From Rhina ancylostomus (lineage: Eukaryota): 64,000 nt of DNA. The stretch lies in contig JARFYF010000012.1 of assembly GCA_030265395.1 (NCBI GenBank), positions 15,061,375 through 15,125,374 on the forward strand. The letters run 5' to 3'. The stretch's first letter is position 1, and each line of letters starts with the position of its first letter. The notes under the pieces are model-generated. The model did no database searches, was not told where the DNA came from, and saw nothing but the letters and a program-made list of their open reading frames with translations. Of this stretch, positions 3,622 to 63,282 are shown one piece after another. The position numbers and the translations under genes are program-made.

Positions 3622-3715
3622 CAAAGCATCAAACAATCTGCTGGAGGAACTCGGCAGTTTGAGCCGCATCTGTGAGAGGAAAGGAATTATCGATGGTTCA
3701 GTGCAATTGTTGGCC
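3622..3715. mobile_element. Penelope-like terminal fragment
   Basis: caaacaatctgctggaggaactc is identical to 52501-52523 and homologous to the arms at 56262-56973. Confidence 0.65.
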
Positions 3716-21245: not shown

Positions 21246-24200
21246 CTCGCATTGGATAATGTAAATACAGTTCTACCAATTTGCTCTTAATGCACAGGGT
21301 CTCAGATGTGTGAATCAGAAATGATTATAAATATGACACTGCTTATAATGTTTCATTGGTGGAGGTAACACATTACCAAACTGGAGTTCAGGACCAATTT
21401 AAAAATTTTGTATTTTATGTTTTTCAAGAATATTTTCAAGAGTGTCATTAAGATCTGGAATGAAATTCAAAAGCAATTGGGCATAAATTTGAATGGTTAT
21501 GGGGACAAGTCTTGGTTGTGGGACAACATTTTATCAAGACTTTTTTTCAATGATTTCATATTGATATGATGGGACCAACAATCATCTGTGTTGTTGGATT
21601 ATGTTATTTTCTTAATATAGTATAAGGGTTCCTTTAAAGGTGTCTTTGATCTCTTCTGTTGTGTTTTCTTTCACTCTGAAGTATGAACAGTTACAATCTG
21701 TTGAAACTTACTGGATTCAGTTTCCTGTTTGTGCAATTGCAAAATGTAACTCTTGGCTCTTACAAGTCCACAGTACAATAGCTGCCGTTTTCATTCAGGA
21801 AATTTGGTACAGTAACAATGGCACAAGTCCATTCCACCCTTTCCACTTGAGGACTTTTTCCATTTACAAATTCTGGATGTTAATCTCAGACATAATGTGG
21901 AAAAGTTGCCAAGCAGAAATGACAGGTGTTTCCTTGAAGTGAGGATGGGAAAATAGGAAGGTAAAAATTAGATTTTCATGAGTTCATTGAGTATACAGCT
22001 TGTCTCAGTGACATAAAGTTAAACCTGAGTTTTATCGCAATTAAAGCATGATTTATATTAGTTTTTGGTGTGTCTGGGGTATGAGAAGGCTGGAAATATA
22101 GGGCAACTCTTTTTTGCTGAAAAGATGGAAATTTGATATTTACAGTCTTGTTCTCTTGCAGTTTATTTAGTCTGTCAATGGAAGCAAAGTAAAAAGATGC
22201 AACTAATGATATGTGGCAAGTTTAGGCCGACGCAACAGGGAATTAATTTCTAGGCATTCATGCACTTTCATTTTGTGAAGTGTCTTTGGGTACTGATGCT
22301 GCTTTCAACAGTTAGCTGATTAAGTTTTCTGTTAACATATTTAATTTTGAAGAAATTATTGAATTTAGTGCAATCCAAATTTATTCTGGTCATACTTGTG
22401 TTTTTTAAATTTTGGATTGGAACTTACAAACTAGTAATAGTGTCTCAAAAGATTTGTTGCCTTTTTTAAAAAAAAGAGGGCTGACCAGAACATATCTCAA
22501 TAGATACGTCAAGAGGAATGGAGTGCATATATAAAAGCTGTATATGGGAAATGATTTTAGTTTATTTTTAGAGGCTACAATGCCACCTAAGAAGCCGGAT
22601 CAATAATTAATGATTCTTTTATCAAAAATATTATGTTGAGTCTGGTAATATCTTCTGAACGAATGAACATTTTTCTATCTTGATTTATTGCCAACTTGCA
22701 TTTTTTTTAAAAAGCTGGCGATTGACATTTCCCTAGAGAAATTGAGTTATATTACTTAGAATTTGATCACATTACACAGTCTTCTTCCCTGAGTGGAAAG
22801 TAGTAGTAGTGCTCTACAGGTAGAAGCATGCTGTGAAAATGCAAGTGTTCCTCCCCTCTTGTGAATTGGTTTATGTGCTTGAAGTATGCAAAATATAGCA
22901 ATTGCTTGTGCAACACTCATTTAGAGCCAGTCAAGATTTAGGGAATGTTCCAAGTATGCTTGGCACTTGATGCTCACAGTCCAACCCAATGTTCATAGCA
23001 CTGCAGAGTGGGGTGAAGTAAAGGGGGCCTCAATGAACTAAGTTCCAGCCAGTGCTTGGAACTTAGCTGAAGCTATTTACTTAAGGGCTCCCTATAAGGA
23101 AACCCTGCTGCAATATGCTGAACTGCCGTGCCCCCCACCCCACCACACCACACCACATGTTATTGATTCCCACTTTCCCCTGGTGCTCTCAAACCTCATT
23201 GTGACTCAAAGGGTTTCATGACTAGGTGGACCAGATAGTCTTGGGCAAGACCTTTTACATGCTTGAATGTTTTAGGCATCTAAGAAACGTGCATGGATAA
23301 TAATGTTGATTTTACATTCTTTGAGCCCAGCACACAGCACCTATTGAGACCCTGGGAGGGAGGTAACATTTTATTAACAGCCTATTGCTGAACCTTTGGG
23401 AGGGAGCCAAAGATATTGACAGTCTACTTGAGGTCAGTCACTTTCAACTGTGAGTGGCAAGCCTTGAAATAGGTAACAAAGTAATGTATAGCCAATCACC
23501 TTTTGGTGAGAAGGACTGGAACATTTAATAAGGAGTGGGAGGGAGAGCTTTGGTTTTAGTGCTTGGTTATGATAAGCACGAGAGAAGTTTTGTGAAAACT
23601 GTAAAGATTCATTTTGGTTAGGTCATTCTCATCTTGGATTAACGTCAACTCAGTGCACTTAATGGCTTGGAAAAGTTGCATGATGTAAGAAGAATTGGTG
23701 GAGAAATTTTGTCTTTTTATAACCAGCATTAAATACATTTGAGGTATCCCGGGCAGAGGAGATGGTGACCAATACTTAAGGTGTTTATTGCTGTTGACAA
23801 CACAAGTTTCTCCTTAATGGTATCTGGCTGCTGTAACGAGGATGGCACATTATTACAACCCCCAGGGTACCTATTGTATAACCAGATGTTGGAATAATAT
23901 GCATCACCATGGAAAAGTATTATCAGATATCCATAAAGGTAATCTAGCTTTTTCATCCAGAACAATGCAGCTAAATTGGAGTGATTTGGTTTTGATACAA
24001 TTTTAGTACACAAAGCAGCCATTACACATTATATTTTAAAGTTCACTTTAAAAAAAATCACAGGATAAGGTTTGAACCCTATTAAGGTATATAAAAAAAT
24101 AGATGTGAGGACCTGGTGAATGAATAACTTGCCCCTTCATAATGTGTTGCTTCCCCATGCATTACCTCCTATGATATTGCTTTCTTCACCTCCTTTACAA

Positions 24201-40194: not shown

Positions 40195-40830
40195 TGGGCA
40201 AGTAAATCACTGCAGAGGCCAGATATCTGAAGTAAAAACAGAAAATGCTGAAAATAGTCAGCAGGTCAGGTGGTGTCTCAGGAGAGGGAAACAAAGTTAA
40301 TGTTTGAGGTGGTTGGCCCATCGCTGATAATGGCCGGTTCTGAAACAAACTGGAAAGGCTGGTTATCTGAAACTCACTGTTTAGCCTTGACAAAATTTGT
40401 GTTCCAAATCAGAAGGGGAGATGCTACCCTTTTGAGCTTAAACTTGAGCTTCATTGGAAGAGTGTAAGAGACCAAAAAGAGGAGTGGTCAATGGGAGTAG
40501 GATAGAGAATTAAAGTGACAGGTAACTGAAAACTCAGGGTCACCTTTTGCAGACCGAACAGAACCCAATATGCATTTTGTTTCTGCAATGCAGAGGAGAC
40601 CTTGTCACCAGCACCATAAGCAGTAAAAGTTCTGAATGAATTGTTGCTTCGTGTGGGAGGGCTGTTTGAGTCCCTTAATGGTGAAAAGGGAAGACAGGAG
40701 ATGAAACACCTGCCCTGTTGTGGTTGCGCCAAAATCAGCAGTGAGGAGGAGTTCTGTTTCACTCGCTCTGTAGATGTTGTCTGACCCGCTGATTTACTTC
40801 CAGCACTTCCTGGTTTTATTTCAGATTTAG
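40195..40830 (-). mobile_element. Decayed Penelope-like element with a GIY-YIG endonuclease remnant and inverted termini
   Basis: Minus strand 40506-40541 encodes DPEFSVTCHFNS, followed (frameshifted) by FGLLHSSNEAQ and HLPF*FGT, typical of the PLE endonuclease C-terminus. Ends atctgaagtaaaaacagaaaatgctg and cagcacttcctggttttatttcagat are inverted. Confidence 0.7.
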
Positions 40831-51102: not shown

Positions 51103-52546
51103 GTTTGGCTTAAATTGGACAATTTTGAGGAAAGTAACTCTGTCTATTTTGAATCAGTTTCTTTAGTGCTTGTAATTATGAACTACACGTTTCAAGAATT
51201 TTAAACACAGAATGCTATAAATAGTCAACATTTGCATTGCTGAAACTTGCAGACAGTAACTTGCCTCTCATGCTTGCTAGTGAAGCTCCCCTGGTATTGA
51301 CTGGCTGGTAACTGAAGTTGGGATACCAAGTGGTGGCACCCCACATGTAACTTGGATGGGCCAGAAATGAGCCTCAACCACAGGACCATTGAAAGAAGAC
51401 AGCTAGCTAAGACCTCCTCCCCACAGCTTTGCTGTCAAGGATTTGATAGGCTTCTGAATGTCCCCATTGCCATTGAACCCAAATATTAAAATAATTTAAA
51501 TCCTCTGCCAAGGAATCACTTGACACACTTCATAATGTTTGCTCTAGAACAAGGAATGACTTGTCAGAAAACTGAAGAAGCAAAATCCATTGTGAGTTTT
51601 AAGAGGGTCATCAATAAATCTTCAAATAAGAAAGGGAATGCAAATGAGTGAGGGAGCTCCTCCTGAAGTATGAGCACAGGTTTTGTGGGCCTCGGCTCCC
51701 AATTTGCTGCAGAGTAGGTAAAATTTTCCATTGAATCAGTGGAAGCACGAACTTGGAAATATTTAGAATTCCACGGTTGAAGTATTCAACAACCATTGAT
51801 TAATGTTTGAAGGAATATAATCAGTGGTCTTGTATTATTGTAACCTACACATTGTGCACTAGGCTGGGAGCAGGAATATGTTCTAAATCCTGTTTCTGCC
51901 TACAGGCTGTGTAATGGTTTTGTGTGAACAGGCCAGAGTCAGGATTAAGAAGCAAGTGTATCCAGTTTATTTATGCTCAAACTAGAGAAAGTTGCTCATT
52001 GCTCAAAATTGGTAAGCACATGGAGTTTCTTAATGACTGAGAGCAATTAATCAGGGAGGAAAATCGGACAGCTTTGTCAGATGGGGATGGATTACTACTT
52101 GCTACCTACTACTAACTTCCATTTCTGTTATTTCTTAAACATTGGGAATATTACTTCTCAAAGGCTCACATTGAAGTAGCCCTAAATTTGATTGCTGTTG
52201 GAATACAAGTCACTTTGCAATGGGAAAGAGCAATAGTTTTTTCTCCCCATAAGTGAATGACCAGGAATAAATGCACTACAGCAGGATAATTTCCTGAGGA
52301 GCAATCTAATCAGCAGTCATGGGCAATAGTTGCACCATTTGAAATCCACCAATAATAATGATGTTAAGATTCTTATTAAGCAGTTAACCAGCCCATTGTC
52401 ACCTCCATCACTACCCCACGTCCCACTAATGTGTCATGCAGTGTTCAATTTTTTGTCACAGAAAAATGAAAACAAAATAGATAAATTTAATCTTAAGCAA
52501 CAAACAATCTGCTGGAGGAACTCAGTGAGCTGAGTAGCATCTGTCA

Positions 52547-53060: not shown

Positions 53061-56000
53061 AAAGAAATTGTCGAAGTTCTGGGTCAAAACCCTGCATTAG
53101 GGCTCAGTGGAGAGGCAAGATGGCCAGCTTGGGGAGGAGAAGGGAAGTAGCAAGGAAAATTACCTGGGTGATCGGTGAGCTGGGGGCAGCTAATGGGCTG
53201 GTTTGGGTTGATGTGCATTATAAATCCTGCAGCATTTTAAGCTGATAGTGAAGGCAATGGGAGTAAAGGTGGGGTGTCAAGCGAGTACTGACACCCTTTC
53301 ATTTTCTGGCAGGTGAGTAAGCTTAAAAAGAATCCGGTTTACTGAGGAGCAGTGCTCAACCCCATTGGCAACCAGTCTCCTCTGCAAGAATGATTTTCAG
53401 CCTTTGATCAACATTATTGCTTACAATTTCAGTGCTGTCACTGGGGCTTATCATCAGCTCCCAGATACACAATCTCCTGAAGCTGGACAGCAGAGTCTGT
53501 GAGCAAGGAATGAAATCTCATAGCCCAACTTTGAGCCAGATTTTGTACATTCTCTATACCTTTTGAGAGTGGGAAAACCTTTTTTAGAAAGAAATAAAAT
53601 TTGTATATTTTCTGCTTCATTATATACAGGATGTTCCTGGACTTGATTCAGACATACCATTTAAAACTAATAGTTGTGGTCGAGGACCCTTTTTTTACTA
53701 TTACATTGAGTAGAGTGATTTTCCACAGTGTTTTTTATTTTGCATGTGCCATGTGACACTTGACAAGTCAACATAGAGGGAACAGAAATGCAGCAAAAAT
53801 GTGCTTTCTTTTTCCAGTTATCACTCATATCTGCAAACAACTTGCTCTATTTCCCTTTGCCTCATGGTTAAGAAATATTTCAGTTTCAGACTTCCCTTGT
53901 TTACAAATTTGCCTTTGGCTTCCTTTTTNNNNNNNNNNNNNNNNNNNNNNNNNNNNNNNNNNNNNNNNNNNNNNNNNNNNNNNNNNNNNNNNNNNNNNNN
54001 NNNNNNNNNNNNNNNNNNNNNNNNNNNNNNNCTGTAGAACTCCGTGCCCAAACCAGCCACCAGCACTCCACTGTGATGGAGTGCTGTATCGGGGCTGTCT
54101 CAATGCACATGGCCCTTTGCACTCTCAGAATGACTTTGACATTTGGTGAGACTCCATCCTTGGGCCTGCTGGCTGCCAAAGGTGGTACTGTATTTGAATG
54201 TTTAAGAACGTATTAGACATTCAGTAACACTTGGGACGTGTCAAAAATAAAAAGTTGTTAAAAGTTTTTTCTCCAACAATTGGAAATCTTTAATGTTTTT
54301 CAAATAAACAGTGCTCTATTTCCCATGTAGCTGGCAGTTGTTTCTCCCAGTTATTTGAATGTACACTCACCAGATATAACTTGGTTCTGCTTCAACAAGC
54401 AGATTTCCAGTCTGGGAGTGGTAGGTATGTACAAGTTGATGTTTCCCTGAATCCACCAGCACAGTACAAGTCGAGCCACATGCACAGATGTCACTGTTGG
54501 ATTAGGCCCCTGTCAGTGCCACAAATAAACAGCAACATGGGAACTGTGCCAGCCTGAAATTGTTCAGAAAATTAACTTTGTGATATCATAATGCGCTAGG
54601 ACTGAAGACTAGCAAAACTCTTTGCATATAATGAAGAACACTTAAAAATCTGAGGATTGTGTTTTCAAGATTTTCCCCTGCATAGGGGTTCTACTTCATT
54701 GTATTTTCTCTATAATAGCAAGGCAAAATCATGCTTCAAGGTGAAACATCAGGGTGTACTGACATCACTGTACCTTGTTAATGATATACCTGTTGTCAGT
54801 ACAGTTTAGATTTACTAAATTGATGGGGTGGTTGTTCTACAAAGGGCACTTGAGGGAGCTGGCATATTCAACTAAATTCCAGTGCATATGAGAGAATCTC
54901 ATAAAGGTGTACAAAATTCTGAAAGGGGTTGACACAGGATAGATGATAAGCTGTTTCTTCTTTCTGGATGTGCTTTCACTATCATTATGCAAACTGTAAT
55001 TTAAACTAGTTGCACTTTATTTTCTTCCAACCACCTAATTCATTCAGTCACAAATCAATATTTTGGTTCTGTTGAAGGGAGGATCACATCAAGCCCTTTA
55101 CATTTCAGATAATGGATAAAATGGACAAGGGCAAAGCAATGTCTCATTAAAAGAATGCCAACAAAGCAATAACAGGAAAGCACATCATTTGCTGTTCAGG
55201 ACCTTGGCAAGTCTAATGCTACTATGATAAACTGAACAATATGATGTACTGTTTAAAAGCTTTGAAGAGGAAGTGATCGCACTTTCAGCTATGCAAAGCA
55301 CTTGGGCACAGTCCAAGGTGCATCTAAAAAAAAATATTTCTGAAGAGCTTTTTCTGAATTCAGTAAGCATTTTATGATATATCCAAAATTTAGTTAAATT
55401 GCATTGCTATTCATTTCTATTTTATCAGACTTGAGTATTTTAAAGAATGTCTTATCTTTACTTTTTAAATTGCAGTGATGGTCGTGTGAGGGAATGTTGT
55501 CATTTTCACAACCACTCATTTCCCGTAACACAACAGCCAAATTTTTAACCCCATGACCTAAATTTATAGTTTGAGAGTATCACCATGAAATTCTACTCGC
55601 ATTTTATTGTATATGGTGTAATCATACACAGAACAGTAGTTCCAACAATGGCACAATTATATAATAATACAATGTCATTTCACAATACTTTGGTATGATA
55701 GTGCCCCTCTTCCTTTATCCACCTGCCCAAGCCCACTGTTTAATGCACAGTTGGGAGTAACATTTGTGGATTGGCAAAGACTGTGTTGGAAGGTACATTA
55801 TAATCAATGAGCAGTTGGATTTTACAAAATAGTACTCCCAAATATATTAGAATTTGGGGACAATATTCCTGTTTACTCTGTGATTACTTGGTGTTAAAGA
55901 GGGTGAAATATTGTCTTGGGTACCTGGGCTTTTAAGTGTGCATTATTGGGAATGCACCAAGCAGTGACTTTTCCATTTGACACTTCCAGACAAAATAATT

Positions 56001-56321
56001 TCTTCCTTGGATTAACATTTGAAGGGGAAAATGTTAAAGCAAGAGCCGGTACATGAGCCTTGGTTGATACGCTTTGACACAATATTTCAATGGGAGGGGA
56101 GAGGGTAGCTCTGGTTCAGAGTTAGGATGTCCAAAATTGATCATGTCTCCCCTGTTTGCAAGGTGATGCTGTAACCTTAATGCATTAATTCTGCAGGCCA
56201 ATCTTTATAAATGAAGCCAAATGCATTTGATTTAATGGAAGCTGATGAATTCTCTCTTGTACAATACACAAAGTGCCAGAGGAACTCAGTGGATCAGGCA
56301 GCATCTATGGAGGGAAATGGA

Positions 56322-56356
56322 CAGTCGATGTTTCGGGCCGAGACCCTTCAGGACTG
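56322..56356 (-). ncRNA. Minimal type I hammerhead ribozyme-like motif (degenerate)
   Basis: Minus strand: cagtc-CTGA(3-nt gap)-aggg tctcgg ccc-GAAA-c-atc-gactg; perfect stem I and stem II, core deletion. Confidence 0.6.
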
Positions 56357-56825
56357 GAAGGAAGAGGGCAGAAGCCAGAATAAGAAGATGGGGGTAGGGG
56401 GAGGAACAACCACGGGTGGGTGATAGGTGAGTTCAGGGGATGTGAGTTTGTGTGAGAGGGGGAAGGTGGGTCGGGTAAGGGGGGGAAGATGTAATAAGCT
56501 GAGAGGTGATAGGAAGAAGNNNNNNNNNNNNNNNNNNNNNNNNNNNNNNNNNNNNNNNNNNNNNNNNNNNNNNNNNNNNNNNNNNNNNNNNNNNNNNNNN
56601 NNNNNNNNNNNNNNNNNNNNNNNNNNNNNNNNNNNNNNNNNNNNNNNNNNNNNNNNNNNNNNNNNNNNNNNNNNNNNNNNNNNNNNNNNNNNNNNNNNNN
56701 NNNNNNNNNNNNNNNNNNNNNNNNNNNNNNNNNNNNNNNNNNNNNNNNNNNNNNNNNNNNNNNNNNNNTCTGCCTGCGTGTGCTTCTTCCCCTCCCCCCA
56801 CCTTATTCTGGCGCCTACCCTCTTC

Positions 56826-56863
56826 CAGTGCTGATGAAGGGTCTCTGTCCGAAACGCCAACTG
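56826..56863 (+). ncRNA. Minimal type I hammerhead ribozyme-like motif (degenerate)
   Basis: cagtg-CTGATGA-aggg tctctg tcc-GAAA-c-gcc-aactg: intact core boxes and stem II, mutated cleavage triplet. Confidence 0.65.
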
Positions 56864-57324
56864 TTTGTTTGTTTATTTCCCTCCATAGATGCTGCCTGAC
56901 CTGCTGAGTTCCTCCAGCACTTTCAGTGTATTGCTCCAGATACATCTAGTATCTGCAGAATTTCATGCGTCTCTGAATTTTCTCTTGTATTCAGCCAACC
57001 ATTTTCTGGAGAGTATGTTCCTGGAGTACACTGAATATAACATGTCAGTTAAATGAATGAAATATGTAGAGTGTGTCTCAAATGTAATAAGCAGTCAAGA
57101 GATTTCTGCCTCTTTGCTCACATGGAATGAAACCAAGAAAGTGGATGCAAACTCTTAATGCAGCATTCTTTGTTAAAACCTAAAAGTCAATCGACTTATC
57201 CAAAGATTAAAACACTTCAAAGGGAAGTGCGCAGTAGATTGATGCAAATTAACTTTTTGGGGATAAATCAACCAACCTGGCTGTTTCTTTGCATTGATGA
57301 GAATGCCTCTAGTTAAACAATTCA

Positions 57325-57640
57325 TGCATGGTTCTGCAGGTAAGTAATTTTATGCTACCCATCTTGTCCCCGGTTCAGACTGATAAATAATTCTCTTGCC
57401 TGGTTCAGAGCAATAGGTAATTCAATCCTGTTCTATTCATGGTTGGTGCAGAATGACAGGTAATTCAATAATGTCCCTTTCATATCTTTTCTCAGATTAA
57501 TGGCTAATGTTTCTGGTTCAGTGCATCAGATAATTTCTCTTGAGTCCACTGAAAATCTCGTTTAGAGTGGTAGTTACTTCAAGAAGCTCAGTTCCTGTTT
57601 GGTGCAGAGTTCAATGTAATTATCTTTGATTAGGTTCTTA
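57325..57640 (+). repeat. Degenerate, irregularly spaced short repeat array
   Basis: About 6 copies of ggt(t/g)cag..N7-8..taatt(c), e.g. ggttcagactgataaataattctcttg, ggttcagagcaataggtaattcaat, ggtgcagaatgacaggtaattcaat, ggttcagtgcatcagataatttctcttg. Confidence 0.6.
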
Positions 57641-57879
57641 ATAAACAGCAAAGCAAAACTGCTGAATACTCCTGTTTGGTATTGGGTGCTAATGCACCAA
57701 CATATATAGGAAGGGCGTTGTACTTCCATCTCCTGACAGCAGATAAATTTTGGACAAAAGATTCTATTTTCTCTTAAATGATGCCATTTTGAACCAAGCT
57801 GTCAGCTCTAACAAAATATTTTGGGATGATTGTACCAAGTTAATTGCTACAATGAGACTACAAATCCATGGAGGATATG

Positions 57880-58272
57880 TCAAAGTGGAGTTTATTGTCA
57901 TATACACAAGGACATGTATGCACAAGTATAATAAAAAATTATTTGCAGCAGTATCACAGGCACGTAGCATCATATAACCAGCATTCACAAGAAAAACAAA
58001 TTAAACATATGCTTTTTTACAAGAAAGAACACAATTAGAACAGGAAAAAAAGTGCATTTTAGTGCAAAGTGGTTGTAGTGTTGTTAAACTGTAGTGGTTG
58101 GGGTTGTGCCGGTTGGTTCAAGAACTGAATGGTTGAGGGGAAGCAACTCTTCTATAACCTGGTGGTGTGGGATTTCAGGCTTCTGTACCTCCTGTCCAAT
58201 GGTAGCTGTGAGAAGATGGCATGGCCCGGATGGTGGGGATCTATGGATGTTGCCATTTTGAGGTGCTGCCGT
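57880..58272 (-). mobile_element. Rex1/Babar-like LINE 3' fragment
   Basis: Minus strand encodes IHRSPP/HHPGHAIFSQLPLDRRYRSLKSHTTRL*KSCFPSTIQFLN. Confidence 0.88.
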
Positions 58273-58479
58273 GCTTGACAATAGTGTGGAAAGATGGAGG
58301 GACAGAATAAACTGAAGACATCATTGATGTGAAATGAAGTTTTTGTGCTTGGAAATTCCAGTGGGCCTAGTTTGGAATGGTGTAATAAAGTTGTCGCCCA
58401 ATGCTGGGCATGCAGGTCATTTCACTAACTGACATAGGTCTCCATACCTGCTAGGCCTGAGTCCATACACCCTTATAAA

Positions 58480-58800
58480 ACAGCCTGAGAACACATACCA
58501 CCAGGTTCAAGGANNNNNNNNNNNNNNNNNNNNNNNNNNNNNNNNNNNNNNNNNNNNNNNNNNNNNNNNNNNNNNNNNNNNNNNNNNTCTACATCGTCAT
58601 GGCCCTTGCACCTTATTTGACTACTTGCACTTCACTTTCTCTGTAACTGTCACACTATATTCTGCATTCTGTTATGGTTTTCCTCTTGTGCTACCTCTAT
58701 GTAATTGTGTATGGAATAATTTGTCCAAATGGCATGCAGAGAAAACCTTTTCACTGTATCTCAATACATGTGACTATAATGAACCAATTACTATTTACTT
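58480..58800 (+). mobile_element. Rex1/Babar-like LINE 3' fragment spanning a gap
   Basis: SLRTHTTRFK before the gap; the 3' UTR is the reverse complement of 2915-3110. Confidence 0.8.
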
Positions 58801-58929
58801 GAGTTGAGCAGCACCAGGTATTCTTTCCCCTTCCAGATCAGTAAGGAGTGTAACTGATTGCATCACCCTTCCCTCCAGTAAAAGGTTTGTTTACTTTGGA
58901 GGACCCCATACGTGCTTTACCCAGGTCAT

Positions 58930-59192
58930 AAAGGACCCGGGAAGTGCCCTCTTCTCGTTACTACCATTGGAGAGGAGGTACAGGAGCCTGAAGACCCACA
59001 CTCGGCATTTCAGTAACAGCTTCTTCCCCTCTACCATCAGATTTCTGAACGGACCATGAACAGTGCCTCATTATTCCTCTTTTGCACTATTTATTTAATT
59101 TTGTAATTTTTATCTCTTTATCTTGCACTGCCCTGCTGCCGCAAAACAACAAATTTCGTTGACATGTCAGTGATAATAAATCTGATTCTGAT
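58930..59192 (+). mobile_element. Rex1/Babar-like LINE 3' fragment
   Basis: Encodes GSALFSLLPLERRYRSLKTHTRHFSNSFFPSTIRFLN; tail aataaatctgattctga. Confidence 0.9.
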
Positions 59193-63147: not shown

Positions 63148-63282
63148 TGGCTCACCCTCAGGATCCACACCAGCCCACAGAAAAGCTAGCCATCCGCTGC
63201 TTCAAGTGTGGCGATCCATGTAAAGGACAAGTGCTACGTGTCCAGTCCAGACACTTTCACCTCAAATGCTTCACCTGCAAAG
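63148..63282 (+). CDS. ABLIM1: ABLIM1 internal coding exon (135 bp, phase 1-1): (V)AHPQDPHQPTEKLAIRCFKCGDPCKGQVLRVQSRHFHLKCFTCK, N-terminal half of LIM domain 1
   Basis: The translation has the LIM pattern CxxC-x17-HxxCxxC, preceded by VAHPQDPH, which matches my recollection of vertebrate ABLIM1 (VAHPQDPHHPSEKPVIHCHKCGEPCKGEVLRVQTKHFHIKCFTCK). Polypyrimidine tract plus cag acceptor ends at 63147; donor is AAG|gtagga at 63282/63283. Confidence 0.95.

Follow-up and report, generated by a model that had tools for sequence, protein, structure and literature searches.

A repeat insertion in the ABLIM1 region

We analysed a window of 64,000 nucleotides from the ray Rhina ancylostomus (contig JARFYF010000012.1). 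Its plus strand carries the exon for the start of the first LIM domain of ABLIM1 and, to the left of that exon, two arms of repeat DNA in inverted orientation that are separated by an assembly gap and enclosed by a short direct repeat. The features that matter here are as follows.

56246-56261, plus strand: left copy of the target-site duplication, 16 bp, 15/16 identical to 56974-56989, adjoining the short end of the left arm
56262-56519, minus strand: left arm, 258 nt, the 3' UTR/pLTR end of a Penelope-like element without a tail, reaching the gap
56322-56356, minus strand: broken minimal hammerhead of the left arm, antisense to ABLIM1, with a 3-nt deletion in the CUGAUGA box and G-to-A at position 16.2
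56520-56768, no strand: assembly gap of 249 N (nominal length), containing the arm-arm junction
56769-56973, plus strand: right arm, 205 nt, the 3' UTR/pLTR end of the element with a tail; the family 3' end falls at 56973
56826-56863, plus strand: broken minimal hammerhead of the right arm, sense to ABLIM1, with U16.1 changed to C (GCC), a G-A mismatch in stem I and a G-U pair in stem II
56934-56973, plus strand: one-sided 40-nt tail, right arm only; two 3'-end classes exist among 81 family copies
56974-56989, plus strand: right copy of the target-site duplication, adjoining the end of the tail
63148-63282, plus strand: ABLIM1 exon, start of the first LIM domain, with AG/GT boundaries and 100% identity over 96% of the query

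A first-pass annotation of this DNA had described inverted arms of ~150 bp, bounded by a 15/16-identical direct repeat and placed in an ABLIM1 intron. The direct repeat was confirmed at 56246-56261 and 56974-56989, and the arms are indeed inverted (74.8% identity over 155 columns, E about 1e-23), with three inverted segments pairing DNA that lies inside the direct repeat. They are longer than had been thought, since each runs up to the gap, and they are asymmetric, the 40-nt extension on the right being absent from the left. Identity to other best genomic copies is 80-83% along the whole length of the left arm, whose inner part is family sequence too, and 80-86% for the right arm (best 40 scored of 2804 first-look candidates in a genome search). 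The insertion measures at least 460 bp; family sequence touches both edges of the gap and the inner junction lies inside it. This gap, one of 14 N runs in the window, was spanned by none of the contig pieces listed from four runs.

The exon at 63148-63282 matches ABLIM1 of Hypanus, Pristis and Hemitrygon, and later exons follow downstream on the plus strand. This gene orientation puts the right arm in sense. The assignment to ABLIM1 stands on the exon at 63148-63282, and the placement within an intron comes from a weak upstream match: 21876-21960 (plus strand) resembles an alternative first exon of shark ABLIM1 (aligned over 21876-21953, 46% identity, E 5e-4). We regard the insertion as likely intronic, upstream of the first LIM exon. 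In this first-exon homologue, an in-frame stop immediately precedes the GT donor (at about 21960), and the aligned position lacks a start codon; the homologue may be non-coding in this ray. A search of the window and of 40 kb upstream did not find the commoner ray ABLIM1 first exon, MVMVNEK.

Elsewhere in the window there are four older and shorter Penelope ends from sister families, at 3630-3701 (minus), 40203-40309 (minus), 40755-40826 (plus) and 52489-52543 (minus). Six degenerate 23-nt repeats lie to the right of the insertion (57370-57621). The interval 57217-57559 is about 85% conserved in three distant organisms, the contigs of which end before the insertion, and is possibly a conserved non-coding element.

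An abundant Penelope-like family, likely of the Neptune clade

The arms had been read as a Penelope-like terminus, and this reading was borne out by other copies of the family, which run upstream into coding sequence for a reverse transcriptase (RT) and a GIY-YIG-type endonuclease. The peptide encoded 5' of the arm has an end like that of a Penelope endonuclease. This C-terminal peptide occurs upstream of the arm at seven loci (L005, L007, L008, L018, L024, L025 and L026), the distance from stop codon to hammerhead is about 320 nt in two gap-free loci, and the genome as a whole yielded 35,125 first-look candidates for the peptide.

At one locus, L057, the order of parts can be followed: RT, then frames for the thumb, linker and endonuclease, then the arm. 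The RT frame of L057 matched Pfam RVT_1 with an E of 4e-4, below the cut-off, and Pfam detected no GIY-YIG domain on this genome's own degraded endonuclease frames. An exhaustive search with the L057 endonuclease frame returned 3191 relatives, and a word-index search of the same frame against longer proteins passed none of 853 candidates. Nine homologues of the endonuclease were scanned: six contained both RVT_1 and GIY-YIG, two contained GIY-YIG alone, and one had no match. The arrangement that marks an endonuclease-bearing (EN+) Penelope-like element (PLE), i.e., an RT followed by a C-terminal GIY-YIG domain before the terminal repeat, is found in the family and is lacking in the truncated copy at ABLIM1. 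Long family copies are gapped in the assembly, and no intact full-length copy was recovered.

A CX4CX2C linker is present in L057, L060 and the homologues, and three of its cysteine/threonine columns are invariant. In the parts of a published account that cover it, a CX2-5CxxC linker between the RT and the C-terminal endonuclease is a feature of Neptune, with a reduced form in Nematis (PMC8557442). The linker sequence thus points to Neptune or Nematis, and we consider Neptune the likely clade.

The six genes that we sampled (see below) contain 12.8 close copies and 140 related matches per Mb, which extrapolates to genome totals of roughly 28,000 close and 300,000 related matches if the sampled introns are typical. 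With these densities, the suggestion that the arm belongs to one of the commonest repeats of this genome is plausible.

The family majority forms a minimal type I hammerhead motif

The first-pass annotation had merged the two damaged motifs into a single hammerhead and supplied its GTC triplet by inference. The merged motif, inferred triplet included, is identical to the majority of 32 family copies that were selected by likeness to the right arm: a CAGTC/GACTG stem I, CTGATGA, one extra A, stem II, GAAA, C and GTC. One element required correction. Stem II, given as 3 bp, actually has 4 bp (the last pair is U-G or U-A) and a 4-nt loop; in two intact copies, it is likewise 4 bp closed by a tetraloop. 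The family majority contains every hallmark of a minimal type I hammerhead, i.e., CUGANGA, GAAA, NUH, stem I, G10.1-C11.1 in stem II and a palindromic 15.2-16.2.

Genome-wide, the exact motif was matched 392 times (control, 0), and the core pattern 4162 times with a 12-nt spacer (control, 3) and 585 times with a 13-nt spacer (control, 0). At sampled loci, 47 of 68 short-spacer copies have C-G as the stem I pair next to the core, and 13 of 19 long-spacer copies have U-A; we read the swap as one compensatory event between sister families, not as independent counts. Folding energies of intact motifs were unremarkable (z-scores of -0.86 and -0.48), so the structure is not supported by folding alone. 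The Rfam check that had been proposed was negative: a scan of 54000-59000 gave no hammerhead match up to an E of 10, and there was no match even in five loci that carry the intact motif. The ray family amounts to some 4,700 core-intact minimal hammerhead matches in one vertebrate genome, invisible to Rfam, and its subfamilies differ naturally in stem I, in N7, in the loop and at position 17.

A separate locus (G000 C7:74622926-74623128, minus strand) has two exact motifs on the same strand, 170 bp apart, and could be a tandem able to act as a dimer, or a retrozyme-like unit.

Both local hammerheads are broken

As first noted, each arm contains a hammerhead-shaped motif, on the minus strand in the left arm and on the plus strand in the right arm. 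Neither motif keeps an intact core together with a cleavage triplet. In the left motif, the G-to-A change at position 16.2 falls on a CpG site and disrupts the stem III palindrome, and the resulting ATC is still an NUH triplet; judged from its sequence, this motif would be dead mainly through the 3-nt deletion in the CUGAUGA box. In the right motif, the mismatched G-A is the core-proximal pair of stem I and one pair of stem II is weakened to G-U; on folding, the hammerhead stems did not form.

The damage to the two motifs had been called complementary. This has no functional meaning, since the motifs sit on opposite strands; for that reason, they cannot pair as a ribozyme dimer. The predicted duplex between the arms has an energy of -205 kcal/mol versus a mean of -84 for 100 shuffles. 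In ABLIM1 pre-mRNA, the arms are predicted to pair together, which would mask the sense motif further.

A single insertion likely placed both arms

The duplication is flush with both outer ends of the arms (anchored score of 13 versus a null maximum of 9 among 147 mismatched junction pairs). To place this in context, 1.57 Mb of sampled family loci contain 60 adjacent inverted pairs, and eight of these, the ABLIM1 site included, combine a 13-17-bp duplication scoring at least 11 with the same short-end/tail-end geometry. The other 52 lack a strong duplication, and among them there are probably many decayed pairs or neighbours of unrelated origin. Family 3' ends fall into two classes, ending either at the short end or about 40 nt beyond it. 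The ABLIM1 site itself shows the attributes expected of an EN+ PLE insertion: an inverted 5'-truncated copy, a 30-40-bp tail on one end and a target-site duplication. The earlier claim of an inverted truncated copy accordingly holds, with inverted arms and a one-sided tail inside the 15/16 repeat.

The two arms are likely the product of a single insertion event. This is not proven, because the junction is hidden in the gap and no empty site was seen; in the empty-site comparison, contigs from four more distant organisms stop short of the junction. Contigs from other runs back the two junctions: the left one is bridged in X1, which is possibly the assembly's own sample, and the right one in X2, from another organism whose flanks diverge by about 3%. 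Contigs of X3 and X9 enter both arms by <31 letters, which is a hint only.

Several side observations concern the ends and other pairs. At short and tailed ends alike, a similar T-rich TTGTGT precedes the junction by a few bases and is a candidate signal for RT start points. The next ABLIM1 intron holds a second inverted pair from this family (L122, 2984-5141), 1.8 kb apart, with the short end on the left, the tail on the right and a weak 8/9 candidate duplication. At L093 (883-1814), an inverted pair without duplication consists of a short end and then a short reverse-complement piece of the tail.

We propose, with high confidence, that the locus represents decayed back-to-back 3' ends of an abundant EN-bearing PLE, likely Neptune, that most likely arrived in one insertion with a 16-bp duplication, and that both hammerheads were broken most likely by neutral decay. 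In the proposed mechanism, the element's endonuclease would have made staggered nicks about 16 bp apart, and cDNA synthesis would have started at two alternative 3' start points to give the tailed end and the short end. Both cDNA products would have been 5'-truncated and then joined head to head. For the hammerhead of the source element, cleavage would require a dimer or the help of the element's protein.

Under twin priming, both nicked strands would serve as primers of separate cDNAs, with RT starting at the tailed site for one and at the short site for the other, and the templates could be different RNAs; this seems to us unlikely as the course of events. Were it true, a two-template event would be recorded in the sister-subfamily variants of the left arm, and sequence alone could test for such events, as ray genomes would offer thousands of inverted pairs with duplications. 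Inverted insertions with clean duplications are, at any rate, material from which one could read in what order priming took place during Penelope retrotransposition.

We consider it improbable that two separate insertions of related subfamilies landed close together in opposite orientation, with the 16-bp repeat a chance match or the duplication of one insertion only. The repeat's fit to both outer ends, above anything in the null set, argues against this, as do the seven other loci at which a short-end/tail-end asymmetry is accompanied by a duplication, a combination also described in the covered parts of published work (PMC8557442 and PMC3846280). PLE ends are nevertheless dense in this genome at 140 matches per Mb, and the gap conceals the junction. 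The subfamily signal bears on both sides: the left arm clusters with a sister subfamily and not with the right arm, and has the TCC and CCA variants typical of that cluster, but over its 258 nt it is matched best by members of the right arm's family. The arms have only 1 difference from the family majority in common and diverge from each other by 14% over 118 columns.

Neutral decay rather than selection in the host transcript

Besides the deletion in its first box, the left arm carries 9 substitutions over 124 columns, and the right arm 11 over 123. We compared family copies by strand in 1.17 Mb covering six genes whose strand is known or inferred (ABLIM1, two paralogues and three laminin-G genes), counting both window arms. 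At 20 bits, the 164 matches divide into 74 sense and 90 antisense (p = 0.24), and at 60 bits into 24 sense and 22 antisense. At 100 bits, there are 12 sense versus 3 antisense copies, with an uncorrected p of 0.035 at one of three thresholds. Among the 34 copies of at least 60 bits that cover the motif, one is fully intact, in sense. Core loss is the norm on both strands.

GTC is kept in 9 of the 34 in-gene copies, and 19 of the 25 others show CpG-type transitions. Across 15 copies, CpG columns are changed in 40 of 117 cases versus 33 of 436 for other motif columns, an approximately 4.5-fold difference. The non-CpG change rate in the same 15 copies is 0.076 inside the motif versus 0.129 downstream, which we attribute to putative subfamily differences downstream. 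We therefore suggest that ordinary mutational decay, rather than selection, is the most likely cause of the damage to both motifs.

An idea raised earlier was that selection had silenced the sense hammerhead, which would otherwise cleave ABLIM1 pre-mRNA. We judge this very improbable. The sense copy did lose U16.1 through a non-CpG change, and tandem retrozymes are depleted in Xenopus introns in the covered part of a preprint (10.64898/2026.07.22.740005), but damage to the antisense arm is no lighter, intact cores number 1/19 in sense and 0/15 in antisense, and sense copies are not depleted at 20 or 60 bits and are in excess at 100 bits. A lone minimal copy would also be little threat, since single minimal hammerheads gave no detectable in vitro cleavage in the covered parts of one study (PMC4209133). 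A weak strand bias is possible given the small sample of 1.17 Mb and six genes.

Two further observations were made on these copies. A one-strand A-to-G scar of the ADAR type was not evident, plus-strand A-to-G accounting for 3 of 9 changes in the left arm and 0 of 11 in the right arm. At 40 bits or more in the six genes, 23 of 85 matches start just before the hammerhead core (model columns 50-59) and 2 start in columns 80-89, near the cut site; the cluster at columns 50-59 may partly consist of alignment starts of diverged sister families.

A non-autonomous, MITE-like element with terminal inverted repeats, or a retrozyme moving as its own unit, would also be short and non-coding with inverted arms inside a duplication, yet this is scarcely credible here, as the ends differ by 40 nt, arm length and spacing vary among loci, tandem same-strand units are absent at the site, and the majority of copies consist of one arm, extend 5' to varying degrees and continue into PLE coding sequence. 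Decayed PLE 3' ends from one insertion remain our preferred reading.

Comparison with known systems

The supported claims are already published for this class of elements, as far as the covered parts of those papers go (PMC4209133, PMC3846280 and PMC8557442). A search of the main literature found no paper that describes the ray family by sequence; Repbase, Dfam and supplements may well include the family. Cartilaginous fishes are not mentioned in the covered main-text parts of Cervera and De la Pena 2014 (PMC4209133). The locus is a real but ordinary dead repeat, of little importance alone, and the family is valuable as material.

Inverted 5'-truncated copies are described for the complex insertions of Pen2/Pen2a in Adineta vaga (PMC3846280) and in the general PLE scheme (PMC8557442), in the parts of both papers covered here. 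The ABLIM1 site resembles such EN+ PLE complex insertions in its head-to-head inverted 5'-truncated copy, the optional 30-40-bp tail at one end, the duplication and the trouble that it causes in short-read assembly. In contrast to Pen2/Pen2a as presented in those parts, its duplication is 16 bp (13-17 bp at sister loci) rather than 8-10 bp (PMC3846280), and the copy retains no ORF.

Minimal type I hammerheads are reported in the pLTRs of metazoan PLEs (Xena, Poseidon and Neptune), in hosts that include fishes, coelacanth and Xenopus, with no cleavage by single motifs and weak cleavage by dimers (PMC4209133, covered parts). The ray motif shares with these the core boxes, the extra nucleotide before stem II, G10.1-C11.1, a 5-bp stem I and a loopless palindromic stem III, and its genomic distribution is also alike, with thousands of scattered single copies and some opposite-strand pairs 100-700 bp apart. 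Its stem II is 4 bp, versus 7-8 bp in Schistosoma in the same source.

Non-LTR retrozymes are defined by a tandem of two or more units on one strand, each with a complete motif, and one chondrichthyan case appears in the covered part of the preprint that describes them (10.64898/2026.07.22.740005). The local insertion is similarly non-coding and PLE-derived with a type I hammerhead, but its arms lie on opposite strands, are broken and form no tandem.

Lastly, PAc, a Poseidon element of Anolis carolinensis, has been shown to cut and extend the two strands of its target; its tail is bounded by two RT start sites, and its hammerhead requires protein and is dispensable in vitro (PMC11167929). PAc belongs to the Poseidon clade and is without the cysteine linker, whereas the ray family has the linker. 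Like PAc, the ray family has a hammerhead in its pLTR and 3' ends of two classes, with a tail between them (PMC11167929).
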